This document shows, piece by piece, positions 1 through 23,819 of a stretch of DNA of 32,000 nt. The translations under genes and the position numbers were made by a program. The stretch's first letter is position 1. Each line of letters starts with the position of its first letter. The stretch is taken from positions 420,001 to 452,000 of the forward strand of contig CP061211.1 of the NCBI GenBank assembly GCA_026016245.1, read 5' to 3'. The stretch is from Candidatus Pacearchaeota archaeon (GTDB taxonomy: Archaea; Nanobdellota; Nanobdellia; Pacearchaeales; UBA284). Below the pieces are notes generated by a model that saw only the letters and a list, made by a program, of their open reading frames with translations, searched no databases and was not told where the DNA came from.

Positions 1-212
1 ATACTAGCTAAAATCCTTGCTTCATGAATTCTTGATTTCCATAACTTTAGTGCTAGTTCATGATTTTTACCTATCTTTTTACCAAGGTTTCTAATATTTG
101 GCATTGAGATTCCAAGCATAGTTTCTCCTTTAATCCCAAATTGCTTCATACCTTCTATATTTTTTGGATTTCTAAATTTCTTTAATTCTTTAATAATTTG
201 TTCATATTTCAT
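1..212 (-). CDS. DNA alkylation repair protein (AlkD/AlkC-like HEAT-repeat family), N-terminal part, runs off window edge
   Basis: Absent from the ORF track because it is open at the window edge. My minus-strand translation from the ATG at 212..210 is MKYEQIIKELKKFRNPKNIEGMKQFGIKGETMLGISMPNIRNLGKKIGKNHELALKLWKSRIHEARILAS. This fits the N-terminal pattern I recall for the DNA_alkylation family (NP..a..M..Fgi....lGi.mP.iR.l.k.ig..heLA..LW.s..hEaRilA). Confidence 0.55.
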   Translation of the reverse strand, partial: MKYEQIIKELKKFRNPKNIEGMKQFGIKGETMLGISMPNIRNLGKKIGKNHELALKLWKSRIHEARILAS

Positions 213-218
213 TTGAAA

Positions 219-290
219 TGCCCCCACGCGGACTCGAACCGCGATCACCGGCTCCGCAAGCCAGCAGTCTATCCATTAACCTATAGGGGC
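219..290 (-). tRNA. tRNA-Arg (anticodon GCG)
   Basis: Reverse complement is GCCCCTATAGGTTAATGGATAGACTGCTGGCTTGCGGAGCCGGTGATCGCGGTTCGAGTCCGCGTGGGGGCA. It folds as a cloverleaf with acceptor GCCCCTA/TGGGGGC, anticodon stem CTGGC/GCCGG, loop TTGCGGA and T-arm CGCGG-TTCGAGT-CCGCG. No CCA is encoded. Confidence 0.85.
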
Positions 291-372
291 CAAAATAAAA
301 AAGAAGAGAGAATTAAAAAAGCTTTGGACTTTTGTAATTTTCTGAAAAGAAAAATTAGAGGGGATAACTGAG

Positions 373-1509
373 TTATATAGCTTCCAAGGATGCTTCACAG
401 ATTTTTATATATTTATTCATGATTTTATCCCAATGTAAATAGCTTTTTATTTGTTCTCTAGTTCCTTCTTTTATTTTTAAACTAGTGGTTTCTATAATTT
501 TGTTTAAAACTTTTTCTGCTGAACTGAAATCCTCTAATACCAAATTTGTTAGCCCAAGATCTCTAAATATTTCTGATACCCCCATATTTTCACTAACCAA
601 TGCAGGAGTTCCTGTTGCAATAGCTTCCAGAGACACATTGCCATATGTTTCAAAGTGAGAAGGACATACTATTACTGTCATTTTCATGAAAAATTGCCTT
701 AATTTATAAGTACTCATCTCTGGGACTATCTCTATATCTCTATCTTCTAATTTCTTTCTTATTTCTTTATCTTTTTTTATTTCTGACACTGCTAAAATAT
801 GATAGTTACTGCTCTTTTTATCTAATGCTCTTGCTAAGGATATAAGAAATTCTATATTTTTTATTGGATGGGCTCTGCCTACAAATCCTATTGAATTCTT
901 TTTTTTAGTAATACATTCCTCTTTGAAAAATTCTGGGGCTACACCATTGGGGATGACTATAGAATTCTTGATTTTCCTTCTGAATATTTTTTCTATTTCT
1001 CTCTTAGTAAGTTTTGAAGGGAAAACATAGAAATTATTTGGCCTATCAAAATCCAGTTCTATCTGTTTAAACAGGTGTAATAGGGGGGCTGGAGTACCCG
1101 CCTCTTCTTTTGTTAAAATTCCTGCATAATTAACTATTGTTGGTTTATTAAGGTTTTTTGATGCTTTATATATCATCCAAGGAGCATAGAATGTTCCTTC
1201 AGACAATACCACATCTATTCTTTCATCTTTCATTATTTCTTGAATTTCTTTTATAGTAGGTTTAAGTCTTCTTTCCAAATCATTAATATCCCTAAGTCCC
1301 CTATAAATATCCATCGAACAATTTACTCCTTTTCCGACAGTAAGGTGATAAATCTTCACAGAGCCTCTTTCTTCTATTTTAGGTTTTTCTTTTGTTATGC
1401 CTATGACTACTAATGGGATTCCTTTTTCTTCACAATAGCGAATCATTTCATTAGCTCTTCTCGCTATCCCCCCTCCAGAATGTAAATTTGTGTTTGTTAA
1501 GATTCTCAT
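373..1509 (-). CDS. Glycosyltransferase, GT-B fold (family 4/group 1-like)
   Basis: The N-terminus MRILTNTNLHSGGGIARR is typical of GT4. The C-terminal region HFETYGNVSLEAIATGTPALVSE matches the EX7E motif. I prefer the ATG at 1509 to the TTG at 1524 used by the ORF track. Confidence 0.75.
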   Translation of the reverse strand: MRILTNTNLHSGGGIARRANEMIRYCEEKGIPLVVIGITKEKPKIEERGSVKIYHLTVGKGVNCSMDIYRGLRDINDLERRLKPTIKEIQEIMKDERIDVVLSEGTFYAPWMIYKASKNLNKPTIVNYAGILTKEEAGTPAPLLHLFKQIELDFDRPNNFYVFPSKLTKREIEKIFRRKIKNSIVIPNGVAPEFFKEECITKKKNSIGFVGRAHPIKNIEFLISLARALDKKSSNYHILAVSEIKKDKEIRKKLEDRDIEIVPEMSTYKLRQFFMKMTVIVCPSHFETYGNVSLEAIATGTPALVSENMGVSEIFRDLGLTNLVLEDFSSAEKVLNKIIETTSLKIKEGTREQIKSYLHWDKIMNKYIKICEASLEAI

Positions 1510-1623
1510 GTTATTATTGACCAAAAAACCTGTGGAGTATCAAAAAGGTAATTCTTTAAAAATTTTTCCTAAAAAACATGGCTTTGCTACCACCTGGGAA
1601 CAAAATTAAACAAATTCAAATAA

Positions 1624-3936
1624 CTAAACCAAAGTTTCTTGTTTTTCAGTCTCAATTATTGCTTCTCCATACTGGCCATCAAAACCTGGTTTTACTTTAA
1701 TTTTCTCCCCTCTATTTTTCAAGATAGCAGATGCAATTTTATCTGTTGTTATCTTTCTTAAATCTTCTACTGGAACATTTAGAAGAATATTATATTCGTC
1801 TTTGAATTTATCTATCAATTTATTATATTCAGCCCATACTTTTTTAGTTGACATTGCTGAATTAAGTAGCTTAGAGAGAATTTCATGTAAAGGTAATAAG
1901 GTATAGAACTTTACAGCTTCTTTTGGTTTGTATCCTTTTTTTCTGTCTGCCAGCTCTTCAACTCTATGTTCTACACCTATTGTTAATGGCTTCTTACATA
2001 TTGGACAGATATTATGGTATTTTTCTATAGCCTCTTTTGGTGAGCATGAAAAGTTGCAAGTCCTGTGTCCATCAAAATGATATTTACCATAAGCAGGATT
2101 AACTTCAATTGTTCCTTTATAACCTTCTTTTGTTCTTATTGCTTTGATAATGTTTTTATATGTTAGTTTAGGCAGATCAAAAATAGTTGCTTCTCTTCCT
2201 AAACGCCATGGCCAGAATGAGTGTAGGTCTGAAAAAGAGGTTATTGTGTATTTATCTAATATACTAAGTCGCCAATTCATTTCAGGGTCAGAATTTCCAC
2301 ACCAAACAGGGATCCCATTCCTTCTAATATAAATGATATGATTTGGAACCTCAAGACAGTACACAAAACCATCATAATTAACCCACGATTCTTTATAGTT
2401 ATATTTTTTGACAATTGAAGGTAGAACTGTATGGGTATTCTTCCTGATAAAGTAGATCACCCACGAATCTTCTGATTGTCTATAGCTTTTTAGTTTAGCA
2501 TGTGGTAACGAAGTAATTGGCGTGCCTTTTTTAAGATGTAATTTATAATATGCAGAAATACCCATTTTCAAAGCAATTTCTTGAAGATCATCTCGTAGCC
2601 TAGTAGAAATAGTAGTTGCAGATAAACCTTTTCTATTTCTTCCATAAATATGACCATCCCCTTTAATGTAATACTCAAAAAAGATTTCTAAAAGTTCTTT
2701 TGATAAAGATTTTATTTCTAGAGGGATAAATTTATTATAGCTTTTTCCAAATTGCTTAAGATAATGAAATAATTGATAATCTCTTACCCTAATCACATTA
2801 TTTCCCTGGTAAATACTATAACCAAAGCTTTCGAGAATTTTCTTCATTTCAAAAAGTAAATCTGTATTTGAGTTAGCTAAACAAACATTATAATCCCCAT
2901 TTTTGCCTTTAGTCGTCCATCCCTCTGCCATCCAAAATCCAAAGAATTTTAACCAAGGTTTTATGGGAATGTGCTTTTCTTTTTTAACTCGAAATCCTTT
3001 GTAATGACGACTTCCATGTTTTATTTTAACAGTTGGTAATGTGAAATATTTTATATTTTTGCCAATCCAGATACCATCTTTTTTAAATCTCTTTGATTTG
3101 TTGAATAAAAATTCTGCTTCTTTAAGAAAAAAATTAGGGGGTTTACGAAAATCACACTTGCTAATCAAAAGTTTATGATTAGGAGTAACTAATAAATCTA
3201 CCCTTTTAGTTTTTAATCTATACATCTTTCCTTTATGTTTATAAGTAAATATTTTTCGTGGTTTCTGAAATTCAATTTTATTATTTTTAATATTTAATGT
3301 GCAAATTTTGTTAGTTTTTTTTACTTGAGGAAATTTTTTCCAACCATTATTAGTTAAAACTTCTGTTTTTTCATCATAACAAGACAGACCTGTTTCAAGA
3401 GCATATATATGTTTGACTTGATCTTCAAATGCCTCTTCAAAACTATCAAAACCTGATTTACTGCCTAAGACGCCAAACCAGGGTGTCCAAATATGTGCTG
3501 GTATAACTTCTATATCTTGTGATATGGATTTTAATGCTTCTGTAACTTCAGGTAAAGGCATTCCAAAAATAGGTCTGCCATCATAGTCTAAACGGCCTTT
3601 TTTTCCTAGATAACTATTGATTTGTTCTACTATTTCAAGATTTGGGGCTAAGATGACGATATGAACTCTCCTTCCTTTATTTCCTTGAGTGTACATTAAT
3701 GAAATTTCTGTTTGCAGAATGAAAGGAAAGCCATTTGCTGTTTTTAAGATTCCTGTATCTTGCTCTTCTAAATATTGCTTTATCTCCTGAAGCCATAAAG
3801 GATGTGTAAAATCACTTGTTCCTAGCAAGTTAACACCTTTAATTTTTGCCCATTTTTCTAGGTTGGGAATACTAAGCTCATGACTTGTTGCTCTTGAGAA
3901 TCTGCTATGTATGTGTAAATCAGCTATAGTTTGCAT
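1624..3936 (-). CDS. endoQ: Endonuclease Q (PHP-domain, TIGR00375-like) carrying an in-frame intein
   Basis: The N-extein carries ADLHIHSRFSRATS (PHP motif I), IVILAPN, PAHIWTPWFG and ALETGLS. The C-extein carries SDPEMNWRLS, SFSDLHS and a Cys-rich zinc finger, CNFSC..(12)..CPICKK..GVEHRVEELADR. The exteins sum to 407 aa, the size expected for EndoQ. Confidence 0.8.
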   Translation of the reverse strand: MQTIADLHIHSRFSRATSHELSIPNLEKWAKIKGVNLLGTSDFTHPLWLQEIKQYLEEQDTGILKTANGFPFILQTEISLMYTQGNKGRRVHIVILAPNLEIVEQINSYLGKKGRLDYDGRPIFGMPLPEVTEALKSISQDIEVIPAHIWTPWFGVLGSKSGFDSFEEAFEDQVKHIYALETGLSCYDEKTEVLTNNGWKKFPQVKKTNKICTLNIKNNKIEFQKPRKIFTYKHKGKMYRLKTKRVDLLVTPNHKLLISKCDFRKPPNFFLKEAEFLFNKSKRFKKDGIWIGKNIKYFTLPTVKIKHGSRHYKGFRVKKEKHIPIKPWLKFFGFWMAEGWTTKGKNGDYNVCLANSNTDLLFEMKKILESFGYSIYQGNNVIRVRDYQLFHYLKQFGKSYNKFIPLEIKSLSKELLEIFFEYYIKGDGHIYGRNRKGLSATTISTRLRDDLQEIALKMGISAYYKLHLKKGTPITSLPHAKLKSYRQSEDSWVIYFIRKNTHTVLPSIVKKYNYKESWVNYDGFVYCLEVPNHIIYIRRNGIPVWCGNSDPEMNWRLSILDKYTITSFSDLHSFWPWRLGREATIFDLPKLTYKNIIKAIRTKEGYKGTIEVNPAYGKYHFDGHRTCNFSCSPKEAIEKYHNICPICKKPLTIGVEHRVEELADRKKGYKPKEAVKFYTLLPLHEILSKLLNSAMSTKKVWAEYNKLIDKFKDEYNILLNVPVEDLRKITTDKIASAILKNRGEKIKVKPGFDGQYGEAIIETEKQETLV
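2293..3381 (-). mobile_element. Intein with LAGLIDADG homing-endonuclease domain (residues 186-548 of the EndoQ ORF, 363 aa)
   Basis: Block A is Cys1 (CYDEKTEVLTNNGW). Block B is LLVTPNHKLL (TxxH). The two LAGLIDADG motifs are LKFFGFWMAEGWT and LEIFFEYYIKGDGHI. Blocks F/G are DGFVYCLEVPNHIIYIRRNGIPVWCGN, followed by a +1 Ser. I checked the boundary codons in the sequence: aca at 3379-3381 encodes Cys, att at 2293-2295 encodes Asn, and aga at 2290-2292 encodes the +1 Ser. Confidence 0.8.
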
Positions 3937-3965
3937 TTTATAGGAAAGTAAAAAAGATTTTTATA

Positions 3966-3976
3966 TGTTTATATAC
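3966..3976 (+). promoter_or_regulatory. Candidate TATA box for tRNA-Ser, in a divergent promoter region shared with endoQ
   Basis: The A/T tract gatttttatatgtttatatactc ends about 15-25 nt upstream of the tRNA 5' end at 3989. This spacing is compatible with an archaeal TATA box at about -26. Confidence 0.3.
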
Positions 3977-3988
3977 TCTTTTGGATAT

Positions 3989-4070
3989 GCCGGGATGGCC
4001 CAATGGTAAGGCGCAGCCCTGGAAAGGCTGTTTCCGTAAGGATATCTGGGTTCGAATCCCAGTCCCGGCG
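3989..4070 (+). tRNA. tRNA-Ser (anticodon GGA), long variable arm
   Basis: Sequence is GCCGGGATGGCCCAATGGTAAGGCGCAGCCCTGGAAAGGCTGTTTCCGTAAGGATATCTGGGTTCGAATCCCAGTCCCGGCG. Acceptor is GCCGGGA/TCCCGGC, anticodon stem CAGCC/GGCTG, loop CTGGAAA. A long extra arm precedes the T-arm TGGG-TTCGAAT-CCCA. Confidence 0.9.
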
Positions 4071-4083
4071 CTTCCCAAGAAAA

Positions 4084-4710
4084 ATGAAATATAAAGAGCT
4101 AAAAACACTAAACCAAATTATTCTTTCTACTAGAGAACCAGGAGAACGCCAGACTTTATCTCCAGTAGTGAATATACTACTTCCAACACAAAGATACTTA
4201 ATTATTAGTTCTGATCCATCTTCAGATACCGACAAAACTAAAGATCCTCTAGAGAAACATTCAGGATTTGAAGCAAGAATACTGGCCCTCATGTTTTATG
4301 GTTCAGATGATGCACAAACTGTAGTCAAAATTAGACCCCACTACAAAGAATATAAGGAACTATTTTTTAAGAATTTTTACTGGACTCATTTTTCTAAAAT
4401 CTATGCTAGAGGAAAACCTAATTCTTTCTGGGCCGACAAGTTTTTGATTAAGGAAGTTAAGTTATTTGAGCCTGAATGCATAATAGTATTCGGCAGTATT
4501 GTGACAGATTTCCTTTTTGGAAGGGGAAAATTCATTGATAGAATAAACAAGGTTCTTTTGTGGAATAATATCCCAACAATTTGTTGTCTTCATCCTTCAA
4601 AAGACTGGAATATTCGTCGTCGTAATGAATATAGTTTTTATGCAACTTGGAAATTGATAAGACAAAAATGTAAGTTCTACCATAAAGAGGAAGTTGAAAA
4701 ATTAAAATAG
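4084..4710 (+). CDS. Uracil-DNA glycosylase superfamily-like protein with a divergent motif A
   Basis: The ORF-track start at 4003 overlaps tRNA-Ser, so I use the ATG at 4084 (MKYKELKTLN). The layout is UDG-like: RYLIISSDPSSD sits where family-4 enzymes have the GEAPG motif, and PTICCLHPSKDW resembles the HPS motif B. Confidence 0.45.
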   Translation: MKYKELKTLNQIILSTREPGERQTLSPVVNILLPTQRYLIISSDPSSDTDKTKDPLEKHSGFEARILALMFYGSDDAQTVVKIRPHYKEYKELFFKNFYWTHFSKIYARGKPNSFWADKFLIKEVKLFEPECIIVFGSIVTDFLFGRGKFIDRINKVLLWNNIPTICCLHPSKDWNIRRRNEYSFYATWKLIRQKCKFYHKEEVEKLK

Positions 4711-4732
4711 ATAGCTCGAGGGCTCGCTTAGG
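4711..4732 (+). repeat. Dispersed repeat copy A (ataGCTCGAGGGCTCGCTTAGG)
   Basis: Exact 19-mer shared with copy C (8995-9013). It lies immediately after the stop of the CDS at 4084..4710 and 49 nt upstream of the CDS starting at 4781. Confidence 0.8.
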
Positions 4733-4780
4733 ATAACTTTTTATAATAACAATTTTTTAGATAAATAAGGTTAGGGGAAA

Positions 4781-5395
4781 ATGATAAAAAATATTGAATT
4801 TATCTGCTCTGGTAATAAAGATAGAAGCCCAACAGCACAAGGCTATGCAGAATTAGTGCTATCAAAAAATAGAATTTATGAAGTAAAGATAATTTCTAGT
4901 GGGACACAGGTTGATATAGCGAAAAAGTTTGATGAGTTTGATGAATTAGATGATCTCAACTTAAGAGAATTTGTCTTGCCTTATATTCCTACTGCATCTA
5001 ATAATGGATTTATTTCAGAAGAAGAAGCAGAAAAAATAAAAGAAGGTATTGAAATAAGGCCAATCATAAAAAGAATTGTGGGGATTTTTTTAAAAAAGAG
5101 TGAAGAATATAGAAAAAAAATAGTAGAAGAAAAAAGTTATTTAGCACCTTATTTAATTAATCATTCACCAAATCAAACAATAGTCAGACCACAAACAGAA
5201 TTAATTCTTCCTATATCAAAAGGAAATTTAGAAAGAACAATCAAGATTTATGAGAACACAAACAAAAAACCATGGATAGAATTATTAGCAGATATTTCTG
5301 ATCCTTTTCCTTCAGATTATGGAATGTATAAGAACACCCTAGAAAGAGTAGAATCAGCTGTCTTAAATAAGTTAAAAGAAATTTATGAATTTTGA
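4781..5395 (+). CDS. Low-molecular-weight phosphotyrosine phosphatase / ArsC-fold P-loop protein
   Basis: N-terminal IEFICSGNKDRSPTAQGYAE contains the CX5R(S/T) P-loop. A C-terminal DP motif is present (ADISDPFPSDYG). At 204 aa it is longer than typical family members, with an acidic insertion. Confidence 0.55.
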   Translation: MIKNIEFICSGNKDRSPTAQGYAELVLSKNRIYEVKIISSGTQVDIAKKFDEFDELDDLNLREFVLPYIPTASNNGFISEEEAEKIKEGIEIRPIIKRIVGIFLKKSEEYRKKIVEEKSYLAPYLINHSPNQTIVRPQTELILPISKGNLERTIKIYENTNKKPWIELLADISDPFPSDYGMYKNTLERVESAVLNKLKEIYEF

Positions 5396-6625
5396 TAAAA
5401 TGGATTTAGAGCAAATCAAAAGAGCACAGTTCGCAGCAAGAGAACCAGATGTCCCTTTATTTTGGCAGACGTTATCTACATATGCTAAAGGAGATTATCT
5501 TATGTTGGCGAAGCCACCCCTTTCAGAAGTCTATTATTTAAATAGTAGTGGGAATATTGAATCAGAAATAGGTTACAATACTTTCCGGAAAGTAGAAAAT
5601 GTAAAAGAAATAATTTTGAAATACAGCTCATTTTTAGATAGATTGGAAGATTTCTCAAAACGATTAAAAAAAGAGAATATAAGGGGTATAGAAGATGAAG
5701 AAATAAAGAAACTTTTCTATGAGATAATAGAGTTTTTATCTGAAGTGATGGAGATTTATAAATACACGGAAGCTGCACGATTTGAGAAGATTGAGAAACA
5801 TATTTATAATTTTTTAGATAAAAAAATAGAAGATAAAAATAAGGTTAAAGAAATTCTTCTTAAATTAATTTCTAATGAAAAGACTACTGGAGTTATGAAT
5901 GAAGAAAAATCAAATCTTTTGAGGGTGTTTGGAGCAGATGATGAAATCTATAATTTTGTTTTTGCTGTTTCTAAGCTGTCCTATCTTAGATTTAAATTAA
6001 AAGAAAATCTGATGAAAGTTGTTCAAGAAGATATTTATCCGATACTTCAAGAAATAGGGACAAGATTTAAAATAACACTAGAAGAGATGTTTATAACTAA
6101 AATTGATGAATTTGAAAAAATTTTAGATGGAAAAACTAAACCATTAGAGGAAATATATAAAAAAAGAATGAAAGGATATGCATTTCTCCAACTGAATGGA
6201 AAAAGAGAAGTTATTGAAGGAACTGAATTTGAAAGATTAGATGAGCACATTCATAATTTAACTATTAAAAAGGAGATAACTGAGATTAAGGGCCAAACAG
6301 CTATGAAAGGAAAAATTATTGGGAAAGTCAGAAAAATAATGGATTACGAAAGAGAAATGAAAAATTTTATAGAGCGATTTAAAAAAGGAGATATTATAGT
6401 TACTGGAATGACTCAACAAACATAACCGTTCTTACTGGGAAGGCTGGTGCGATAGTAACTGATGAAGGAGGCATAATCTGTCATGCAGCGATTATCTCTA
6501 GAGAATTTGGAGTTCCTTGTATTATTGGTACAAAAATTGCTACAAAAGTTTTAAAAGAAGGCGAATTAGTGGAAGTTGACGCTGATAATGGAGTAATAAA
6601 AAGATTAGAAAATAATATCAAGTAA
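5385..6625 (+). pseudogene. PEP-utilizing-enzyme mobile (swivel phosphohistidine) domain protein, interrupted by a frameshift near 6414-6425
   Basis: Frame A (5385..6425) ends ...[15 protein letters not shown]. The -1 frame continues without a start codon as [68 protein letters not shown], with its stop at 6623-6625. This is the canonical PEP-utilizer swivel domain (..VT..T.P.....[11 protein letters not shown]..sHaAIvaREfGiP.v.G..). Adding one A to the run at 6418-6420 restores a single ORF of about 413 aa. Confidence 0.75.
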
Positions 6626-6642
6626 AAAGATAAAAATAAATA

Positions 6643-6670
6643 ACTTGAGGGCTTGCTTAGGCTGGGTTTT
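6643..6670 (+). repeat. Dispersed repeat copy B (aCTTGAGGGCTTGCTTAGGCTGGGTTTT)
   Basis: A variant of copies A and C with two C-to-T changes. It shares the extension GG(C/T)TGGGTTTT with copy C. It overlaps the last 4 codons and the stop of the minus-strand gene at 6657..7250. Confidence 0.7.
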
Positions 6671-7250
6671 CTAAATATAAAGAATACCATTTAGCAAAAT
6701 TTCTGCCTGTAGCATTAGCTTCTAATGAAGTTTTAGTCCACATAACATATTCTTCATGTGTCATTTCTGCAAGAGTTTTATCATAATTTTCTGGGATAAA
6801 TATTAAGCCTATTTCAGACCATAAATGTTCTTGCATTTTCCCTCTTATCTTCTCAGCAAGTATTCCTTTAATATGACTAATAAAATATTTCGGATTTTTA
6901 AGACTCTTATCAATATATGCAAGGCATTCTCTAAATTCACAATTTCTTTTTTTATTTTCAACTAATTTTAAGATTCCTTCAAGACCTATTGTCTCTAGAG
7001 CAAAGTTAGCAAAAGCCTTTGGAAAACCATTTAATGAAGGAATATAAAAACCAGCATCTAAAGCTACAACTGGTTTCTTAAGTTCATTATAGGCAAATAA
7101 TACTTTTTCTTTTGCAATCTTAACAACATCATCAGACCTAGGTTCATGAATCTCTAATGGGGCTTGAAGAACTTTTACATTATATTTTTCTAATTCTCTC
7201 TGCAAAGATTGTATTTTGCCTTGATTTTTAGTAGCATAGAATAATTCCAT
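6657..7250 (-). CDS. HAM1/RdgB-family non-canonical purine NTP pyrophosphatase (ITPase)-like protein
   Basis: MELFYATKNQGKIQSL matches the ATgN.gK motif. VVALDAGFYIPSLNGFPKAF matches the DDSGL.vdaLnG.PG region. IFIPENYDKTLAEMTHEEY matches F.p.gy.kTfAEm..eeK. Confidence 0.6.
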   Translation of the reverse strand: MELFYATKNQGKIQSLQRELEKYNVKVLQAPLEIHEPRSDDVVKIAKEKVLFAYNELKKPVVALDAGFYIPSLNGFPKAFANFALETIGLEGILKLVENKKRNCEFRECLAYIDKSLKNPKYFISHIKGILAEKIRGKMQEHLWSEIGLIFIPENYDKTLAEMTHEEYVMWTKTSLEANATGRNFAKWYSLYLENPA

Positions 7251-7348
7251 TTCAATGTCAGCTTTTTATTGTTAATAAAGACTATTATAGTAAAATATTA
7301 GAACACAAAAATATATAAATTCCTGTACATTTTAATAAAAAAGTTAAA

Positions 7349-7537
7349 ATGTCACACAATATGTATAGATTAACACCAGATGGACATTATAAAAAGGTAG
7401 ATATAACAGAAGAGATGAAGTTACTAAAACGAGCAGGAAAGAATATGGAAAATGCAAGAAAGGAAGGATATCTAGAGAAACTTAAAATAAGAACAGAGGT
7501 TGTAAGAGGAATATTAAAAGTTTTTATGGCTCGATAA
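7349..7537 (+). CDS. Small hypothetical protein (62 aa)
   Basis: ORF only. It is basic and probably helical, and I recognise no family. Confidence 0.3.
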   Translation: MSHNMYRLTPDGHYKKVDITEEMKLLKRAGKNMENARKEGYLEKLKIRTEVVRGILKVFMAR

Positions 7538-7585
7538 TAAAAGAAATAATTTTAACATTTATAAGATATTTGGTTGGAGGTATTT

Positions 7586-8395
7586 ATGACACACTATTCA
7601 GAAAGAAAAGTTCCAAAAAACTTTGAAGATACATCATATATGCAATCTACAAGAAAGTATCTTATAGAAAAGATAGCAAATGCATTATCAGAACCAGAAA
7701 AAACTATTTTTATGGGCTTAAATAACATAATTATCTTTTTTGATAGGAATGTTGATAGCCAAAAACTTCCTGATTCAACTTTTGATAAAATTCTAAAAAT
7801 CTTACAAGGCAGAGATATAGATTTTGAATACAAAGAAAGATTATATAATTTTTTAGAAACAGTAGATAAATTACCTTCAGAGAAAAGAAGAAAAAGAATT
7901 TATTATCTTCTAAGAGAACATTTTGAGAATTCAATAAAGAATGTTAAGAGAAGATATCAGGTATTAGATGCAAATAAGATCGAAGAGTTAAGAACAGGAG
8001 AGCACCCGACATTTACTATAGAAACAGTTCTTTTATTCCCAAAACTAGATTTTGATATTTTAGACAAGATAAGTAGGAAATATACAATGGGTGCAAAAAT
8101 GGGAGATGACATGACTGATTTTCAAGATGATGTAAAACAAGGATTTTTATATGTTCCTAAAAAACATGTAAACAAAGTTAAAGGAATTGAGGTAATAGAT
8201 GATCATTATAAAGTAACTGGAGAGCCCATTTTAGAAAAAAATTATATTCAACAAGAATTAAAAGAAGCAAAAAGAATATTTAAAGAGGGGGACCTTATAG
8301 CTCGAGGGCTTAATTTCCCAACTCATTTTGAATATTTTAGAGGGATGATGTATTCTTGGATTGAAGAAGCAGAAGAAGAGGGCATTCTGATTTGA
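7586..8395 (+). CDS. Hypothetical protein, possibly an isoprenoid-synthase fold (phytoene/squalene-synthase-like)
   Basis: The ATG at 7586 is preceded by GGAGGT. The track's TTG at 7574 is less likely. GAKMGDDMTDFQDDVKQGFLYVPKKHV resembles the second Asp-rich region of phytoene/squalene synthases (NilRDv.eD...gr.YlP). IFFDRNVDS could be the first DxxxD motif. The assignment is weak. Confidence 0.3.
   Translation: MTHYSERKVPKNFEDTSYMQSTRKYLIEKIANALSEPEKTIFMGLNNIIIFFDRNVDSQKLPDSTFDKILKILQGRDIDFEYKERLYNFLETVDKLPSEKRRKRIYYLLREHFENSIKNVKRRYQVLDANKIEELRTGEHPTFTIETVLLFPKLDFDILDKISRKYTMGAKMGDDMTDFQDDVKQGFLYVPKKHVNKVKGIEVIDDHYKVTGEPILEKNYIQQELKEAKRIFKEGDLIARGLNFPTHFEYFRGMMYSWIEEAEEEGILI
8297..8310 (+). 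repeat. Partial repeat copy D (atagctcgagggct) inside a CDS
   Basis: 14-nt exact match to the first 14 nt of copy A (4711-4724). Here it encodes LIARGL within the 7586..8395 protein. Confidence 0.5.
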
Positions 8396-8449
8396 GATGG
8401 CCAAGTGACTGAGGAGTTGCGATTGAGAGCTCAAGCTCAGTCCCGGCGC
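8396..8449 (+). other. tRNA-Ser-like remnant with a duplicated tRNA-Ser 3' end
   Basis: Sequence is GATGGCCAAGTGACTGAGGAGTTGCGATTGAGAGCTCAAGCTCAGTCCCGGCGCTT. The 5' part resembles the tRNA-Ser D-arm region (GATGGCCCAATGG). The last 14 nt (cagtcccggcgctt, 8436-8449) are identical to 4060-4073 at the 3' end of the intact tRNA-Ser. It has no 5' acceptor strand and no valid T-arm, so it is not a functional tRNA. Confidence 0.6.
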
Positions 8450-8496
8450 TTTTAGAATTCTGATATTTAGAAACCCTTGCCGATATTCTTGTGGTT

Positions 8497-8919
8497 TTAT
8501 AAAGAATGAGAGTAAGAAATGATTAGCTCCCTGAGGTTCGCTAGAGACTGTTTTTCAAATAATTCCTTTACTGTTATGATCTGACCATCTAGTAAATCAT
8601 ACTCTAAGCTAGCTTGTCTTTCCATAGAAATCCCTTCCGCATATTTACATTTTCCATTAACTAAATTATCACATAAACCACATATGTGATCTTTATTATT
8701 TACAATTTCTATTTTTGTACTTGGAGAGTTAGATAAAGTTCTGAAAAAATTTACCATTCTTTCAAGGCTATCTTTAGTGAGCTTATAATAATCTGGGAAT
8801 AAGTAATTTCCATCTACAAATTCATATTTCATATAATTTTCCCACCTCTTATAATTATCTTCCCTTTCTTTCAAAAATATAGCTATGTGGTGTGGTTTTA
8901 ATCTTATTTCTTCTGACAT
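8497..8919 (-). CDS. DUF1284-like Cys-containing protein
   Basis: The ATG at 8919 is preceded by AGGAG, and I judge the track's GTG at 8955 less likely. MSEEIRLKPHHIAIFL resembles the lRpHHllC start of DUF1284. An internal KDHICGLCDNLVNGKC cysteine cluster is present. Confidence 0.4.
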   Translation of the reverse strand: MSEEIRLKPHHIAIFLKEREDNYKRWENYMKYEFVDGNYLFPDYYKLTKDSLERMVNFFRTLSNSPSTKIEIVNNKDHICGLCDNLVNGKCKYAEGISMERQASLEYDLLDGQIITVKELFEKQSLANLRELIISYSHSL

Positions 8920-8994
8920 TTTAATTCTCCTAGAACCCTTAGAGGCCCTAATCACCTCTTGATTTGTCAGTTAATGGAACTTTAAAAATTTATT

Positions 8995-9023
8995 GCTCGA
9001 GGGCTCGCTTAGGTTGGGTTTTT
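8995..9023 (+). repeat. Dispersed repeat copy C (GCTCGAGGGCTCGCTTAGGTTGGGTTTTT)
   Basis: The 19-mer is identical to copy A, and the extension is shared with copy B. It overlaps the last 4 codons and the stop of the minus-strand ORF ending at 9009. Confidence 0.8.
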
Positions 9024-9721
9024 GGATATTTTATCTACAAGTTTGATCAATTTTGGAAGATTGCTTATGAATAATTTTTTATCCCAATCACTTTTCTTGA
9101 GTTTTAGTAGCAAATTCACTAATTCTTTATCTTTTTTATTAGAATTTTTTATTAGGGTCTTATATGAGAAGATATGAGATCCTTTATTGATTTGATTAAT
9201 TAAATAGCAAACCCTAAATAAATTTTTACATACATACTCTATCCAAGAGAAGTCTCCCTTACTTATTTTAGGCATATGAAAACTATAAAATTTTTTAAGC
9301 ATGTTTCTTATTGCTTCTTCATAGGTCCATTCTTTTGTAGGAAAATCTGACCTAGAAAATTTTCTTCCACATATATGCTTCCAGTATCTAAAGTCTAGAA
9401 GAAGTAAATTTGGATGGATAAGTCTGGCGAGTCTGCTCCTAGGCTTTTTTCCTTCGAGTTCTTCTAGGAATAAATAATTTATTTTGAAATGTTTTAATCC
9501 AGATTTTTCTTCTGATAAAAAATTCTTTATTTTTTCCCTATATTAGAACCAAAATTATTTTTTACAATAGCTATAGAATCTATATCGCTCTTACCCAAAT
9601 TAAAATCTTCACTTAAAATAGATCCCCATAAATAGATAGATATTATTCCTTTCCCCTCATATCTCAAGAAGATATTCTTGAGAGCTGAGTAAGTCTTTGC
9701 TAATATTTCTTCCCTATTCAT
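9009..9721 (-). pseudogene. AadA/ANT-like nucleotidyltransferase (NTase domain plus DUF4111-like helical domain), frameshifted in an A6 run
   Basis: The N-terminal ORF (9527..9721) has IYLWGSILSEDFNLGKSDIDSIAIV, the GS..(n)..D.D pol-beta NTase motif. It stops right after an A6 run (minus strand ggg aaa aaa taa; T6 at 9530-9535 on the plus strand). The -1 frame then reads without stops from that point to 9009: EKIKNFLSEEKSGLKHFKINYLFLEELEGKKPRSRLARLIHPN...MLKKFYSF...VCKNLFRVCYLINQINKGSHIFSYKTL...ISKNPT*. This joins the second track ORF (9009..9302). One extra A restores an ORF of about 237 aa. Confidence 0.7.
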
Positions 9722-9804
9722 TTTATTATTAAATCTGTTTTCTTATTAAACTTATATATTTTTTAATTTTTTAGAATTCTATATCATTAATCCAAATAAA
9801 AAAA

Positions 9805-10548
9805 TTAAATTTTTATTGACTTTGCTTTTTTCCAAAATTGTTCAAAAATAAATCTTTGTGTTAAATTCACAGCTTTATCATGAATAATTATACCAATAAA
9901 GTTTTCTTTCTGAAAAGACAAAATAGCAACTTTATCACTATAAATATGTGTCCAGGTTGGTAATTCTTTGAGTTCTTCCAGAATTCTAACTTGAGTTAAT
10001 CTTCTATAAGCTGGTTTTTTCCACATTTTGATGTCTAAAATACTTGAATCAGAAATTCCTCTTAGTTTAATTTTTTTAGAAATTCTTTTCTTTCTAAAAT
10101 CTATTCCTTGATACTGTAATAGTTTATTAATAATAGTAAAAGAACCATAAGCTAAAATTTCTTGTTTTTCTTTTAAAACATCTAAATGAACTACATCAAT
10201 TCCCTTTTTGCCTTCGTAAAATTCTACTAGGGGTTTCTTTCCAATTATTTTTTGTTTTTCTTTAAGTTTGGGCAAAATTTGTTGCAATTTTTTTTCTTTT
10301 TCCTTAAGTTGCTCCAATAATATTTTAGGATCAGAAGCATAAAACTGCTTAATATGTTCTATGATTGTGTAACCAACAATGCCTTTTTTAAGCAATGCTT
10401 CAAGAATATCATAAAGACTTGTTCTGTTGATTCCTGTAATTTCAGCAAGTCTTAAAATAGGACTTTGACCTAGTTCAAGCAACCTAAGATAAACTTTGAT
10501 TTCCTTGTCATTTAAACCTACTTCCTTTAGTATATCTTCTTCTGTCAT
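9805..10548 (-). CDS. TrmB-family transcriptional regulator
   Basis: The N-terminal winged HTH LKEVGLNDKEIKVYLRLLELGQSPILRLAEITGINRTSLYDILEALLKKGIV is typical of TrmB. It is followed by a coiled coil and a C-terminal domain of the expected size. Confidence 0.8.
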   Translation of the reverse strand: MTEEDILKEVGLNDKEIKVYLRLLELGQSPILRLAEITGINRTSLYDILEALLKKGIVGYTIIEHIKQFYASDPKILLEQLKEKEKKLQQILPKLKEKQKIIGKKPLVEFYEGKKGIDVVHLDVLKEKQEILAYGSFTIINKLLQYQGIDFRKKRISKKIKLRGISDSSILDIKMWKKPAYRRLTQVRILEELKELPTWTHIYSDKVAILSFQKENFIGIIIHDKAVNLTQRFIFEQFWKKAKSIKI

Positions 10549-10584
10549 GTTTTTTCTTGTACTTTCGTATTTTTAAATCTTTTC

Positions 10585-10597
10585 GTGGATTTTCCAC
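10585..10597. promoter_or_regulatory. Perfect palindrome GTGGA-TTT-TCCAC in a divergent promoter region
   Basis: It lies between the divergent starts at 10548 (TrmB) and 10638 (AlaRS-like). It is flanked by TATA-like tracts (tatttttaaatc and cataaatttaaatc). It is a candidate operator. Confidence 0.25.
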
Positions 10598-10637
10598 AGC
10601 ATAAATTTAAATCAATTTGTTACTGAAAAATAATAAA

Positions 10638-11810
10638 ATGAGAATGAAAGAATTAAGGCAAATAATAGAAAAATTTCCTAAGAGGAAAGGGACTCAAAAC
10701 ATAAATCAAGATCCGATAGTTAATGAAGGTTATCCTGGAACTTTTAATTCAAGTTACTCAGAAGGATATTGGTCAGAATTATTTGGACCAAATTTAGAGA
10801 TATATGATTTAATTGTACATAAAATACAACCCTGCATTAGATTTAGTGATTTCATTAATAAAATATTGAAAGATACTTCTAAAATTCATTTATCTTGCTT
10901 CGATATGGGTGACATAAGTGGGGCAGTTAATTTTACATCAAGTAAAAACCATAAGAGAATAAGCAGAGAAAATGTAAATGCAATGTTGACTTTCTTAACA
11001 AATTTAGGTTTCAAGCTTCTAGATATTTATATTACTTGTTTTCCTAGAGGAAATTTAAATGAAATAAGTAAACTCAATTATGGAAGAGAATCATTTAATT
11101 TTTATATAAAACCAGACCCAAATATAGATGAATTTAAAAAATTTTTACCTAAAGAAAATATTATATTAACAAAAAAAGATACTTTTTTATGTATAGATCT
11201 TGAAGGATTTAATAAAACACTTAATGGGTACAGAAATGAGATTTTATTTAAAACAAATAAAGGGATGATAGATATTGGAACTATGGAAAATCTTTATCTT
11301 ATGCCACAAAAAGAAAATAATAAAATTAGAGGTTACATTAATAAGGGTTTATTTTCAATTGCAGGAATTGGCCTTGAAAGAGTTTTACTTTGTAAAAATA
11401 ATTTTAATCATATTATAGAGTGTGACCATATTTATCCTTTATATCAACAAATATTAAAAGACTTTAAGAAAAAAGACGAACATGGGGCATTTATTTATAC
11501 AGAATCATTAAGAAGCTTGCATAGGGTATTTAGTGAAAATAACTACAGAAATTTATCTAAGAATAGGAAAAGAAAAGTTAAAAAATTTTTACAGCAGATT
11601 TATCATATTTCAAAAGAAAATATTAAAAATTATTTAGAAATTAATGCACAATTGCAGGATTATTATCCTGAATTAAAAAAAGGAATAGAGAATACTAATA
11701 ATGAAATCATTGGATATTTTGAAAGGAGAAAATCTTCTTTTTTAGAAAGAAAATTAGAAAGAAAAAATATTAGAAATCTTGGTACCAAACAAAAGGCTGT
11801 TCAAGGCTGA
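10638..11810 (+). CDS. Stand-alone alanyl-tRNA synthetase catalytic-core (class IIc) paralog
   Basis: IQPCIRFSDF...KIHLSCFDMGDISG aligns to the AlaRS motif sQPCIR.dD....gr.HlT.FEMlg..sF. IDIGTMENLYLM aligns to lEvatlvFm. FSIAGIGLERVLL aligns to vDTGyGLERf.w. The protein is only about 390 aa. I recognise no tRNA-recognition, editing or C-Ala domain, though about 110 aa downstream of the GLER motif are unassigned. I prefer the ATG at 10638 to the TTG at 10617. Confidence 0.55.
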   Translation: MRMKELRQIIEKFPKRKGTQNINQDPIVNEGYPGTFNSSYSEGYWSELFGPNLEIYDLIVHKIQPCIRFSDFINKILKDTSKIHLSCFDMGDISGAVNFTSSKNHKRISRENVNAMLTFLTNLGFKLLDIYITCFPRGNLNEISKLNYGRESFNFYIKPDPNIDEFKKFLPKENIILTKKDTFLCIDLEGFNKTLNGYRNEILFKTNKGMIDIGTMENLYLMPQKENNKIRGYINKGLFSIAGIGLERVLLCKNNFNHIIECDHIYPLYQQILKDFKKKDEHGAFIYTESLRSLHRVFSENNYRNLSKNRKRKVKKFLQQIYHISKENIKNYLEINAQLQDYYPELKKGIENTNNEIIGYFERRKSSFLERKLERKNIRNLGTKQKAVQG

Positions 11811-12420: not shown

Positions 12421-12426
12421 CCTTGT

Positions 12427-12801: not shown

Positions 12802-12879
12802 TTTTTATGATATACTTATAAAAATTTCTTTAGTTTATAAATTTTTTGATGATATTTTTAATATATCCCAAAGTATCTT

Positions 12880-13239: not shown

Positions 13240-13240
13240 T

Positions 13241-13378: not shown

Positions 13379-13409
13379 CTTTCTATTTGTCTTTTAATAT
13401 TTATAAATT

Positions 13410-13625: not shown

Positions 13626-13634
13626 CTTATTATA

Positions 13635-13709
13635 TGGGGCTGCCCGGATTTGAACCGGGGTCGAGAGGTCCCAAACCTCTAATGCTAAACCAAGCTACAC
13701 CACAGCCCC
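13635..13709 (-). tRNA. tRNA-Pro (anticodon TGG)
   Basis: Reverse complement is GGGGCTGTGGTGTAGCTTGGTTTAGCATTAGAGGTTTGGGACCTCTCGACCCCGGTTCAAATCCGGGCAGCCCCA. Anticodon stem is AGAGG/CCTCT, loop TTTGGGA, T-arm CCGG-TTCAAAT-CCGG. Confidence 0.88.
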
Positions 13710-13750
13710 TGAGTTAAAAGCGTGGTGTTTATATTTAAATCTTATCAAAC

Positions 13751-14419
13751 TTATTTTTTCTTTTCTTCCTTTTTTTCCTCAGGTTTTGCCTCAGTTGGAG
13801 CTGGGGCACCTGGAGCAGCAGGAGCTGCTGCAGCTTTTTCTTCCTCTTTCTGTTCTATTTCCTTAATAAGAGCTTCTTGATCCTTCTTTACTTCCTCAAA
13901 ATCAGAAGCTAGCTTGTCTAATTTTTCTTTATCTGCTATTTCTTTGCCTTCAGAAATAATTTTATCATAAACTCCACTATCTACTTGTTCTATAACTTCC
14001 TTAGGATCTTTGCTCTCAACAAGAATTCCATTACTCACACATGAGCCTAATATAGATTTAACAGCTGATTTCAAAGTATCTGTGAACATGTCTTTCTGTT
14101 TCACCTTAGCGACCTTGATTATAACCTCTATGGCAGCATTAGCTACCTTGATTTTATCTGGTTGCTGAGAGCCTTTTTTTAATCCAAGCTCCTTCTTTAA
14201 TAATTCAGTTGCAGGTGGCGTAGAGACAGAAACAGTAAAATTCTTTGTTTTTGTATCTATGTCGAGTGTTACAGGAACCTTGATTCCTTTGAAGTCAGTG
14301 GTTGCTTTACTAACCTCTGCTATAACTTTTCCGAGATTGATTCCTAAAGGGCCTAGTTTTTGACTTAAAGCAGGACCTGGTTTCATTTCTCCACCTTCAA
14401 CAAGTAATTTGATTTGCAT
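13751..14419 (-). CDS. rpl11: Ribosomal protein uL11 with a C-terminal extension of about 55-60 aa
   Basis: The core (GGEMKPGPALSQKLGPLGINLGKV...STPPATELLKKELG...) is canonical uL11. The tail after ...VYDKIISEG is acidic and coiled-coil-like, then AAAAPAAPGAPAPTEAKPEEKKEEKKK. Confidence 0.9.
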   Translation of the reverse strand: MQIKLLVEGGEMKPGPALSQKLGPLGINLGKVIAEVSKATTDFKGIKVPVTLDIDTKTKNFTVSVSTPPATELLKKELGLKKGSQQPDKIKVANAAIEVIIKVAKVKQKDMFTDTLKSAVKSILGSCVSNGILVESKDPKEVIEQVDSGVYDKIISEGKEIADKEKLDKLASDFEEVKKDQEALIKEIEQKEEEKAAAAPAAPGAPAPTEAKPEEKKEEKKK

Positions 14420-14534
14420 CTCCTTTTCAAAGAAAATCTAGTTTTAAAGACTTTTGTTTATATTTTAGAAACATTTAAATATTAATCAGATTATTTTTTT
14501 GATAGAAAAAGAGTAAAAAATTTCTTTTTATTTT

Positions 14535-14792
14535 TTATTTTATCTCGCAATCAGTATTAATTGCTTGCCCTGGCAGACCTTTTTCAAATACTACTCTAAG
14601 AAGCCCCTTATTCCCGTGTGATGCAGTTATCTTACCTTTAATTATTTTTCCTGCTGGGCTTTTCCACTCAACTTCCTTACCCAAATATTTTTCTGCATCT
14701 TTCTTGTTTTTTACTTTTTCAGTCTGGATAATAAATTGTCTTGGTTTATAAGTGTGCCTTCCACGTCTAAAACTTACAACTGTCGCTTTCAT
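14535..14792 (-). CDS. rpl35ae: Ribosomal protein eL33 (L35Ae)
   Basis: GKITASHGNKGLLRVVFEKGLPGQAI is the characteristic C-terminal motif. The protein is 85 aa. Confidence 0.85.
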   Translation of the reverse strand: MKATVVSFRRGRHTYKPRQFIIQTEKVKNKKDAEKYLGKEVEWKSPAGKIIKGKITASHGNKGLLRVVFEKGLPGQAINTDCEIK

Positions 14793-14793
14793 T

Positions 14794-16614: not shown

Positions 16615-16665
16615 GTATTTAAAAGGGTAAAAACCTTTTTAAAGTTTTACTCTAAATAAGAATAT

Positions 16666-16738
16666 AGGGCCTGTGGTCTAGTGGTTACGACGCCACCCTT
16701 ACAAGGTGGAGGTCCCTGGTTCGATCCCAGGCAGGCCC
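16666..16738 (+). tRNA. tRNA-Val (anticodon TAC)
   Basis: Sequence is GGGCCTGTGGTCTAGTGGTTACGACGCCACCCTTACAAGGTGGAGGTCCCTGGTTCGATCCCAGGCAGGCCCA. Anticodon stem is CCACC/GGTGG, loop CTTACAA, T-arm CCTGG-TTCGATC-CCAGG. Confidence 0.9.
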
Positions 16739-16754
16739 ATAAAAAGACACAAAA

Positions 16755-17441
16755 ATGTTCATAAAAAAGATTTTTCAAAACAAGGTTGATGAAACTGTAC
16801 ATAAACAATTCATAAGATTTGGTAAAGGGGAGTTTGGAAGCAAAGCTATAATAAATATAAGAAAAACTAGTGTGGTAAAGCTAACAACAAGTTTTGAACT
16901 AGCTGGGGATATCATAATTTTCATCAGTTCTCTTGCTCCATGGTTTAGAGTTGAGGGACTCTTGTCCAACAGGGAGCAGATTCCTTGTTTTGAAGGAAAG
17001 AAGAAAAAAGGGCTTTTTGTTTATAATATAGCAAAAGAGTTGAGAAGTGAAGAACTTAGAGATCTTGTATTAAAATCATATCCTACTTTACTTGATTGTA
17101 TTTCTGGAGATGAAAGTATAAACTTGAAGATAAAAAAGAGGATTCCAAAGCCAGGCAAGAAAACTGAAGCTAAAGTTGATGATAAGTTTTGTCAGTTAAA
17201 TCTTGATGCCAAATACTGGCCACAATTACATAATGAGTTTTTATTTGATCTGCCTTTTGAGATAAAGAAAGCAAGAATAGTGCATACTTTCATCATCAAA
17301 GATATAAAGATTCCGAAAGAGCTGGAAAAAGAGGGGGATTATGAAAAAATTAGGTTGGGGGCCAAGCGAATTGGAAAGGTGATAAGGAAGGTCGTTGTAG
17401 ACGGTAAAGAGATAGTAAAAGAGAAGGATTTTATAGCATAA
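16755..17441 (+). CDS. Hypothetical protein (228 aa) preceding the uL3 operon
   Basis: Long ORF with coding-like composition. I recognise no family. It sits between tRNA-Val and rpl3. Confidence 0.5.
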   Translation: MFIKKIFQNKVDETVHKQFIRFGKGEFGSKAIINIRKTSVVKLTTSFELAGDIIIFISSLAPWFRVEGLLSNREQIPCFEGKKKKGLFVYNIAKELRSEELRDLVLKSYPTLLDCISGDESINLKIKKRIPKPGKKTEAKVDDKFCQLNLDAKYWPQLHNEFLFDLPFEIKKARIVHTFIIKDIKIPKELEKEGDYEKIRLGAKRIGKVIRKVVVDGKEIVKEKDFIA

Positions 17442-23818: not shown

Positions 23819-23819
23819 A

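Follow-up and report, generated by a model that had tools for sequence, protein, structure and literature searches.

tRNA genes of the window and the reading frames behind them

The stretch of DNA analysed here, hereafter the window, comprises 32,000 nucleotides (nt) of the genome of a Candidatus Pacearchaeota archaeon (assembly GCA_026016245.1, contig CP061211.1, positions 420,001 to 452,000 of the forward strand), and its tRNA genes, together with the protein-coding genes that begin directly behind them, are the subject of this study. Exactly four tRNA genes were detected in the window, on which ARAGORN and Rfam agreed. Closely behind each of them lies the ATG of a co-oriented open reading frame (ORF), at gaps of 6, 12–13, 9 and 15 nt for tRNA-Arg, tRNA-Ser, tRNA-Pro and tRNA-Val, respectively, as an earlier inspection of the letters alone (the sequence-only reading) had described; the coordinates given there were borne out for the first three tRNA genes and were one base off for tRNA-Val (16667–16739, not 16666–16738). 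Each tRNA gene is preceded by a promoter composed of a transcription factor B recognition element and a TATA box (BRE/TATA), scored with a position weight matrix (PWM), from which the transcription start site (TSS) was predicted. The features of the four units are the following, in window coordinates:

310..325, minus strand: BRE/TATA-like promoter of the tRNA-Arg(GCG) unit, AAAGC TTTTTTAA TTC; motif start at -35 from tRNA +1
219..290, minus strand: tRNA-Arg(GCG); Rfam 60 bits, CCA not encoded
1..212, minus strand: AlkD-like DNA-alkylation-repair gene; ATG at 212, 6 nt past tRNA-Arg
3955..3970, plus strand: BRE/TATA promoter of the tRNA-Ser(GGA) unit; PWM 10.9, predicted TSS 3989 = tRNA +1
3989–4070/4071, plus strand: tRNA-Ser(GGA); ARAGORN, Rfam 60.3 bits
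4084..4710, plus strand: UDG-superfamily-like ORF, 208 aa; ATG 12–13 nt past tRNA-Ser
13729..13744, minus strand: BRE/TATA promoter of the tRNA-Pro(TGG) unit; PWM 11.4, predicted TSS 13710, one base before tRNA +1
13635..13709, minus strand: tRNA-Pro(TGG); ARAGORN, Rfam 57.6 bits
13410..13625, minus strand: ribosomal protein eL43 (L37Ae); ATG 9 nt past tRNA-Pro
16633..16648, plus strand: BRE/TATA promoter of the tRNA-Val(TAC) unit; PWM 7.0, predicted TSS 16667 = tRNA +1
16667..16739, plus strand: tRNA-Val(TAC); ARAGORN, Rfam 67.7 bits
16755..17441, plus strand: conserved 228-aa protein, function unassigned; ATG 15 nt past tRNA-Val

None of the four tRNA genes encodes CCA. The spacers between tRNA and ATG are TTTCAA (tRNA-Arg/AlkD), (C)TTCCCAAGAAAA (tRNA-Ser/UDG-like), TATAATAAG (tRNA-Pro/eL43) and TAAAAAGACACAAAA (tRNA-Val/228-aa). 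The AlkD-like gene extends beyond the window start and codes for 217 aa in all (genome positions 419559–420212). The UDG-like ORF scored 21.3 bits against PF03167, below the Pfam cut-off, with profile position 7 at residue 35. No usable family match was found for the 228-aa ORF in Pfam, NCBIfam or the ESM Atlas, and its orthologs are present in four relatives.

Position 1 of the PF08713 (DNA_alkylation) profile falls on residue 6 of the AlkD-like ORF and position 1 of PF01780 (L37Ae) on residue 2 of the eL43 ORF. Among the short-gap ORFs of the whole genome, as defined below, Pfam profiles start at residues 2–12 of eL43, RNase HII, AlkD and AMMECR1, and those of LMW-PTP and HisRS, which belong to units with gaps of 24–40 nt, start in the same range. 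Starts further upstream would fall inside the tRNA; starts further downstream, which the sequence-only reading had named as a way in which it could fail, are disfavoured by the Pfam alignments and by the orthologs. Wherever they are testable, the proposed ATGs are genuine starts.

Gaps behind tRNA genes in the whole genome

The complete genome (designated G000) is a single contig of 710,724 bp with 31.9% GC. It was compared with four nearly whole genomes (G002, G019, G032 and G041) and with 400 of the 491 kb of a fifth, G102. Genomes G000, G002 and G019 form one family, in which G002 belongs to the same genus and is 89% complete, and G032 and G041 represent two other families of the order. In G000, 44 tRNA genes were called by ARAGORN and 42 of them were confirmed by Rfam. 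A gap was counted as the distance between the 3' end of a tRNA and the first co-oriented ATG behind it with which a real ORF begins. Gaps of up to 33 nt were taken as too short for a promoter, a limit that turned out somewhat too wide, since ORFs of G102 at 25–36 nt are served by a TATA box abutting the tRNA; the main counts accordingly refer to gaps of ≤16 nt.

Gaps of ≤16 nt were found behind 14 of the 42 tRNAs, and of ≤33 nt behind 18. Three classes were distinguished. The short class includes 14 tRNAs with gaps of 5–15 nt, in which Shine–Dalgarno (SD) motifs are absent and T-runs mostly absent. The middle class is formed by six tRNAs with gaps of 24–40 nt, several of them with GGAGG, GAGG or GGGG before the ATG. 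The remaining tRNAs, with long gaps, carry oligo-T directly after the tRNA and a fresh TATA box before the ORF. The claim that every tRNA shows the close arrangement stood for the window (4/4) and did not extend to the genome (14/42). The next tRNA beyond the window, tRNA-Met at genome position 418645, is the fifth short-gap tRNA in a row; the corrected probability of such a run of five is ~0.09, and the window is a patch rich in short-gap units.

On the upstream side the picture is the reverse. An ORF ends ≤24 nt upstream of the tRNA in only 2 of 23 cases, against 319 of 519 ORF pairs (p = 4e-7), and the same rarity of closely preceding ORFs was repeated in all five genomes analysed. The tRNA genes head transcription units and are not embedded in them.

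Promoters, Shine–Dalgarno motifs and terminators

The BRE/TATA motif, with consensus AAAnnTTTAWAW, precedes almost every tRNA gene of the genome. According to the PWM, the motif starts at -33 to -37 from tRNA +1 in 28 of the 30 strong sites and at -34 to -36 in 25 of them, with the TATA box starting at about -29 to -31. At genes heading transcription units the motif start lies at -34 (60 genes) or -35 (14 genes) from the ATG, that is, in 74 of 171 hits, and this register, common to tRNAs and leaderless ATGs, was also found in four relatives. From the fixed distance between motif and ATG, the genome is predicted to use mainly leaderless mRNAs, and its tRNA transcripts to carry a 5' leader of 0–2 nt. 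One promoter type, in one register, would serve both leaderless mRNAs and tRNAs in this uncultured DPANN lineage. Within the window, tRNA-Ser and tRNA-Val have their predicted TSS on their first base, and tRNA-Pro one base ahead of it; the promoter of tRNA-Arg is a weak PWM variant, though at the standard register.

None of the short-gap units has a promoter-like site in the interval from tRNA +1 to the ATG (maximum PWM 6.6, mostly <0), and strong promoter sites lie upstream of the short-gap tRNAs or of the lead tRNA in tandem pairs. The statement that the gaps cannot hold a promoter was confirmed in this way: BRE/TATA elements at the leaderless register stand before each tRNA and none stands inside or after it. 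A single promoter before the tRNA and none before the ORF is the arrangement by which mixed operons are recognised.

The 3' end of the 16S rRNA is GGATCACCTCCT. SD motifs of ≥5 nt were counted at 13% of operon-internal genes, 4% of random sites and 0.8% of leaderless head genes; the 14 short-gap ORFs have none. An SD motif contributed by the tRNA 3' strand or the spacer was also considered and discarded, with none of ≥5 nt encountered there.

Runs of five or more T within 20 nt of the tRNA were counted, by a crude criterion, in 7 of 59 short-gap tRNAs versus 33 of 110 others in the pooled genomes (p = 0.008). In 164 of 186 tRNAs of five genomes, and in 56 of the 59 short-gap ones, the discriminator is followed by T, far more often than a T content of ~34% would give; this T could be a determinant for RNase Z or the first base of a terminator.

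Processing enzymes

The genome encodes RNase Z (338 bits; gene at genome positions 602090–602980) and an archaeal CCA-adding enzyme (262 bits). Since CCA is encoded by none of its tRNA genes, every tRNA requires an endonuclease to cleave behind the discriminator. A candidate for the RNase P RNA was located at genome positions 629486–629925 (model positions 1–288, 69.6 bits, E = 8e-20), below the Rfam gathering score of 84, and Pop5 is present; Rpp30 was not found in the genome. Given the RNA candidate and Pop5, RNase P appears not to have been lost.

Conserved units and the minimum length of the spacer

The order tRNA-Pro(TGG) followed by eL43 is preserved in essentially all of the 30 sampled genomes of the order, and occurs in two states. 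The promoterless one has gaps of 9, 13 and 14 nt in this genus, and further gaps of 13–31 nt; in the second, with gaps of ~37–70 nt, the ATG is preceded at ~25 nt by a fresh TTTAAAA box. From these two states, the promoterless pair would have arisen when the promoter and terminator between the two genes were lost. Other units were recovered behind the same tRNA in the family:

tRNA-Phe and a 107-aa protein: gaps of 12, 16 and 8 nt in G000, G002 and G019
tRNA-Val(TAC) and the 228-aa protein: gaps of 15, 6 and 24 nt in G000, G002 and G019
tRNA-Leu(AAG) and ribosomal protein L18e: gaps of 6, 9 and 8 nt in G000, G002 and G019
tRNA-Met and RNase HII: gaps of 10 and 7 nt in G000 and G002; 20 nt in G019, behind a tRNA labelled Leu-CAG by ARAGORN

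In G032 and G041 the orthologs of these family units mostly stand without an upstream tRNA, and the ortholog of the 228-aa gene does so in both.

Among the 39 units with gaps ≤16 nt in five genomes, none has a spacer of 0–4 nt. Under a uniform model the probability of this minimum is ~1e-6, less extreme once orthologous units are discounted. A gap of zero, which would give a truly leaderless mRNA, is apparently avoided in short-gap units. The minimum of 5 nt is compatible with a need of RNase Z for a few trailer nucleotides starting with U, or with a need of the ribosome.

Distribution in related lineages

Co-oriented ORF starts ≤16 nt behind a tRNA were found in 14/42 tRNAs of G000, 10/36 of G002 and 10/43 of G019, and in 2/27 of G032, 3/38 of G041 and 1/29 of G102. 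By a simpler criterion, 2 of 35 tRNAs from 29 further genomes of the phylum showed such a start. Pooled, the family reached 34/121 versus 6/94 in the equally compact relatives (p = 3e-5, from related genomes that are not independent). Compaction alone does not explain the trait, because coding density (0.89–0.92) and ORF-to-ORF packing are similar in all compared genomes. In G102, eight ORFs have gaps of 25–36 nt to the tRNA before them, and their TATA box starts within 1–6 nt of the tRNA 3' end, so that the promoter adjoins or overlaps that end, which is a different solution to the same space problem; with TATA boxes squeezed behind the tRNA in equally compact relatives, streamlining has more than one solution.

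Proposed expression of the tRNA-headed units

The reading that we favour, at a probability of roughly 0.7, is that the short-gap units are co-transcribed from the tRNA promoter and that a cut by RNase Z releases a short-leader mRNA. It is the most economical one because the gaps are promoterless, SD motifs are absent and the enzymes are encoded. Transcription would start at or 0–2 nt from tRNA +1, in the same register as that of leaderless mRNAs. At about one third of the tRNAs, where the downstream co-oriented gene lacks a promoter of its own and begins 5–16 nt after the discriminator, RNA polymerase would run from the tRNA through into the ORF. RNase Z would then cut after the discriminator, leaving a tRNA of mature length for CCA addition, and the same cut would free an mRNA with a 5'-monophosphate and an A-rich, SD-less leader of 5–16 nt, so that what is elsewhere called the trailer would be the mRNA itself. 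This mRNA would be translated by an SD-independent, 5'-end-proximal route. Two origins may be envisaged for the units: loss of terminator and promoter in old pairs, such as tRNA-Pro/eL43, and insertion of accessory genes at the 3' flank of a tRNA, as in the AlkD and UDG-like cases.

Several points weigh against this interpretation. Co-oriented ORF-to-ORF gaps of G000 are ≤16 nt in 55% of cases and ≤33 nt in 65%, against 42% and 55% for tRNA-to-ORF gaps (p = 0.26); short tRNA-to-ORF gaps are no commoner than operon spacing, and special selection is not demonstrated. The genome-wide survey of distances that the sequence-only reading had proposed came out differently according to the reference, showing no excess over ordinary ORF-to-ORF spacing and a clear one over the equally compact relatives (p = 3e-5), although the genomes compared are kin and their p-values overstate the difference. 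The absence of SD motifs does not discriminate, because the whole genome makes little use of them (13% of internal genes), and the terminator contrast is modest, with runs of T5–6 in 2 of the 18 G000 units with gaps ≤33 nt (TTTTTTAAAAATG, TTTTTAATTTCAAAATG). Gene calls were made with a home-made ORF caller, and anticodon labels are uncertain for intron-containing tRNAs. That tRNA and ORF share a transcript, where it is cleaved and what kind of 5' end the mRNA has are points that we infer, and the translatability in this lineage of a 5'-monophosphate mRNA with an SD-less leader of 5–16 nt is presumed.

Insertion behind tRNA-Arg and tRNA-Ser

For the tRNA-Arg/AlkD and tRNA-Ser/UDG-like units, the abutment could be a mere by-product of site-specific insertion, with no design for expression. 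The AlkD-like gene is missing behind tRNA-Arg in G002 and G019, in both of which the flanking genes directly adjoin the tRNA. In G000 the gene next after AlkD has a start that shares 4 nt with the AlkD stop; in G002 that gene begins 15 nt behind tRNA-Arg(GCG). AlkD appears to have been slotted into an existing tRNA-headed unit. Similarly, a segment at ~4072–11770 (~7.7 kb, 10 ORFs) is missing between tRNA-Ser and a Dph2-like gene in G002 and G019. The UDG-like gene stands first in this segment, which also contains Ham1, DUF1284, a TrmB regulator and a 390-aa orphan. Neither the AlkD nor the UDG-like gene has orthologs in the relatives, and both are strain-specific insertions at tRNA 3' flanks and not conserved designs.

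Within the segment the following repeat was located:

8438..8451, plus strand: exact 14-nt direct repeat of the tRNA-Ser 3' end and trailer, copy of 4060–4073

The 14-mer, CAGTCCCGGCGCTT, lies inside a match of 17/19 positions, with 0.01 expected by chance, and resembles an att-type repeat that an insertion at the tRNA would have left behind. A direct repeat of a tRNA 3' end and a segment absent from the close relatives G002 and G019, which are marks by which a tRNA-targeted island is recognised, are both present. The repeat also accounts for what the sequence-only reading had described as a tRNA-like remnant after 8395: a copy of 14–19 nt of the tRNA-Ser 3' end is there and a tRNA is not. A degraded tRNA was discarded as a candidate, with no Rfam match even at E ≤10 and MAFFT similarity at the 3' end only.

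Insertion as the whole account of these two units is nevertheless rather unlikely. Among the island ORFs no integrase or recombinase was recognised by Pfam, several of them being without any family. Genes next to tRNAs are not strain-specific in excess genome-wide (7/20 without orthologs versus 235/779, p = 0.63), and the idea of tRNA 3' flanks as a general hot spot for insertion was rejected on these counts, the insertion reading being kept only for the AlkD and UDG-like cases. Insertion concerns origin only: the inserted first gene is still promoterless and must be read from the tRNA promoter. It is not applicable to the conserved eL43, 228-aa, L18e and RNase HII units.

Alternative explanations: promoter loss, embedded promoters and annotation

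The units could also be neutral operon fusions, in which the promoter was lost by streamlining, the RNase Z cut is incidental and the uncut precursor is perhaps itself translated. The similarity of tRNA-to-ORF and ORF-to-ORF gaps is what such fusion would produce, the downstream genes are functionally mixed (repair enzymes, ribosomal proteins, small membrane proteins), and tRNA-adjacent genes are strain-specific no more often than other genes. Streamlining alone is insufficient, however, because the equally compact G032, G041 and G102 retain separate promoters, and the lack of any spacer of 0–4 nt among 39 suggests constraint. Judging from established ribosome structure, the small subunit covers roughly 12–15 nt of mRNA on the 5' side of the P site, and a folded tRNA 5–9 nt from the AUG would fall within this stretch, which makes it sterically unlikely that the uncut precursor is translated. 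We consider neutral fusion improbable.

Far less credible is a promoter inside the tRNA gene, the alternative contemplated by the sequence-only reading; in such a case the T-loop (TTCRAAT) would act as a TATA box at -29 for a 9-nt gap and give the ORF a leaderless transcript of its own. The T-loop TTCAAAT of tRNA-Pro does start exactly 29 nt before the eL43 ATG, and T-loops lie at -28 to -30 in 13 of 57 short units. But the interior of the tRNAs scores low with the PWM (-6.7 to 6.6; tRNA-Pro -1.1), the flanks are GC-rich and the BRE is absent; the T-loop-to-ATG distance scatters broadly (-25 to -53), whereas real promoters peak sharply within ±1, and T-loop sequences are alike in short-gap and other tRNAs. 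Lastly, that the closeness is an annotation artefact, with wrong ATGs or ORFs that are not genes, can practically be dismissed: 5 of the 14 short-gap ORFs are small (56–107 aa) and without a family match above cut-off, but Pfam profiles begin within 2–12 residues of the ATG in the testable ones, orthologs stand behind the same tRNA in G002 and G019, and upstream starts would fall inside the tRNA.

Possible dependence of the downstream genes on tRNA maturation

Beyond co-transcription and release by RNase Z, a stronger proposal is tentative, and we hold it to be somewhat less probable than its negation: in this SD-poor family of leaderless type, the RNase Z cut would be the obligatory activating step for ~1/4 to 1/3 of tRNA-linked genes, their output (including that of eL43 and L18e) would be mechanically coupled to tRNA transcription and maturation, and the 5-nt minimum would exist because RNase Z needs it, or the ribosome does on short-leader mRNAs with a 5'-monophosphate. 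If so, initiation that depends on the 5' end would become possible only through the cut, which brings that end near the AUG.

A large class of genes without a promoter of their own would depend on tRNA genes. If RNase Z releases their mRNAs, they constitute a natural set of 5'-monophosphate, SD-less messages with leaders of 5–16 nt, which would bear on how archaea initiate where SD is lacking and the AUG is not strictly terminal. In annotation, tRNA genes would then have to be considered as possible operon heads, and tRNA promoters would let new insertions, such as AlkD and the UDG-like island, be expressed at once.

Comparison with known systems

In mitochondria, according to the tRNA punctuation model of Ojala, Montoya and Attardi, a long polycistron is cut at the tRNAs that flank the mRNAs. 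Common to both systems are a compact genome, a tRNA 3' endonuclease (RNase Z/ELAC2) as the proposed maker of mRNA 5' ends, and predicted mRNAs with almost no 5' untranslated region and no SD (spacers of 5–16 nt, SD in 0/14). Unlike in mitochondria, each tRNA here heads a unit with its own promoter, only about one third of the tRNAs are involved, and no tRNA-flanked polycistron exists. The analogy drawn in the sequence-only reading holds for the 5' side of the mRNAs only, as tRNAs almost never follow an ORF closely (2/23 versus 319/519).

The thrU-tyrU-glyT-thrT-tufB operon of Escherichia coli is a mixed tRNA-mRNA operon in which tufB has a long spacer and its own SD. In another bacterial mixed operon, secG-leuU, the tRNA lies downstream (PMC7049720). 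As in these operons, one promoter would serve a tRNA and a protein gene, with tRNA nucleases proposed here to separate them; the differences are the 5–16-nt spacer, the lack of SD, the tRNA being always first, and the archaeal BRE/TATA at the leaderless register. ORFs of the tufB type, with their own SD, do not occur in short-gap units, and some of the 24–40-nt units have GGAGG or GAGG.

Among archaea, a tRNA-Lys lies inside the 159-nt 5' untranslated region of TK0306 in Thermococcus kodakarensis (PMC4247193), and Nanoarchaeum equitans has dicistronic precursors of tRNA and C/D small RNA (sRNA), in which RNase Z makes the 5' end of the sRNA behind tRNA-Val (PMC3491384). These cases share with the present units a tRNA directly before a second RNA, no promoter between them and the proposed action of RNase Z. 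They are, however, single or few, and the partner in N. equitans is an sRNA, whereas here protein genes are involved at 14 of 42 tRNAs. The leaderless tRNAs of N. equitans have their promoter 26–27 nt upstream (PMC10100707); a similarly strict distance between promoter and tRNA +1 is predicted here. Unlike in N. equitans, an RNase P RNA candidate and Pop5 are present, and 3' processing is needed with CCA unencoded. In haloarchaea, SD-less leaders are translated efficiently (PMC2151090).

Plants possess dicistronic tRNA-mRNA and tRNA-snoRNA transcripts processed by RNase Z (bioRxiv 10.1101/2020.04.13.039131), the tRNA-snoRNA ones being the subject of Kruszka 2003, as cited in PMC3491384. They resemble the present units in that a tRNA and a second gene would share one RNase Z-processed transcript, and differ in being transcribed by Pol III/Pol II, in a proposed role in RNA mobility and in having no relation to leaderless translation. 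The arrangement described here is a lineage-enriched, large-scale case of a known one, the tRNA-headed mixed operon, and the mechanism is not new. A literature search, confined to the searchable library, found no paper on tRNA-mRNA units in DPANN archaea, which is not proof of novelty.

Additional observations

The 770-aa gene at window positions 1624–3936 contains a LAGLIDADG intein (Pfam LAGLIDADG_3 and Intein_splicing); its tblastn match in G002 spans only ~222 residues, and G002 may be without the intein. For 279 of 799 ORFs of G000 (~35%), no tblastn match (E <1e-6) was found in G002, and this accessory fraction appears very large for a 0.7-Mb genome.

Some ARAGORN labels of intron-containing tRNAs in G000 are doubtful, namely "SeC-TCA", "Phe-AAA" and second copies of Ser-GGA and Tyr-GTA (genome positions 679428–679532, 604795–604905 and 81599–81948), and no Asn, Lys or Ile-GAT tRNA was called by this program. 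For the ORF behind the "Ser-GGA" at 81799, the tRNA upstream of the ortholog in G002 was called Ile-GAT. Non-canonical intron positions were probably misread in the doubtful calls.

In the middle class, tRNA-His is followed by the HisRS gene at a gap of 32 nt, with GGAGGT in the spacer (genome positions 625282–626526). HisRS lies 40 nt behind tRNA-His in G002 and ~273 nt in G041; the tRNA 23 nt before it in G019 was labelled Ser(AGA) by ARAGORN.

Two tandem tRNA pairs are present in G000, Arg-TCT/Cys (1 nt apart) and Leu-CAA/Arg-CCT (~0 nt), at genome positions 23701–23881 and 471592–471752, respectively. Three such pairs occur in G002 (gaps of 1, 1 and 2 nt) and one in G032. In these pairs a single endonucleolytic cut would yield both the 3' end of the first tRNA and the 5' end of the second.

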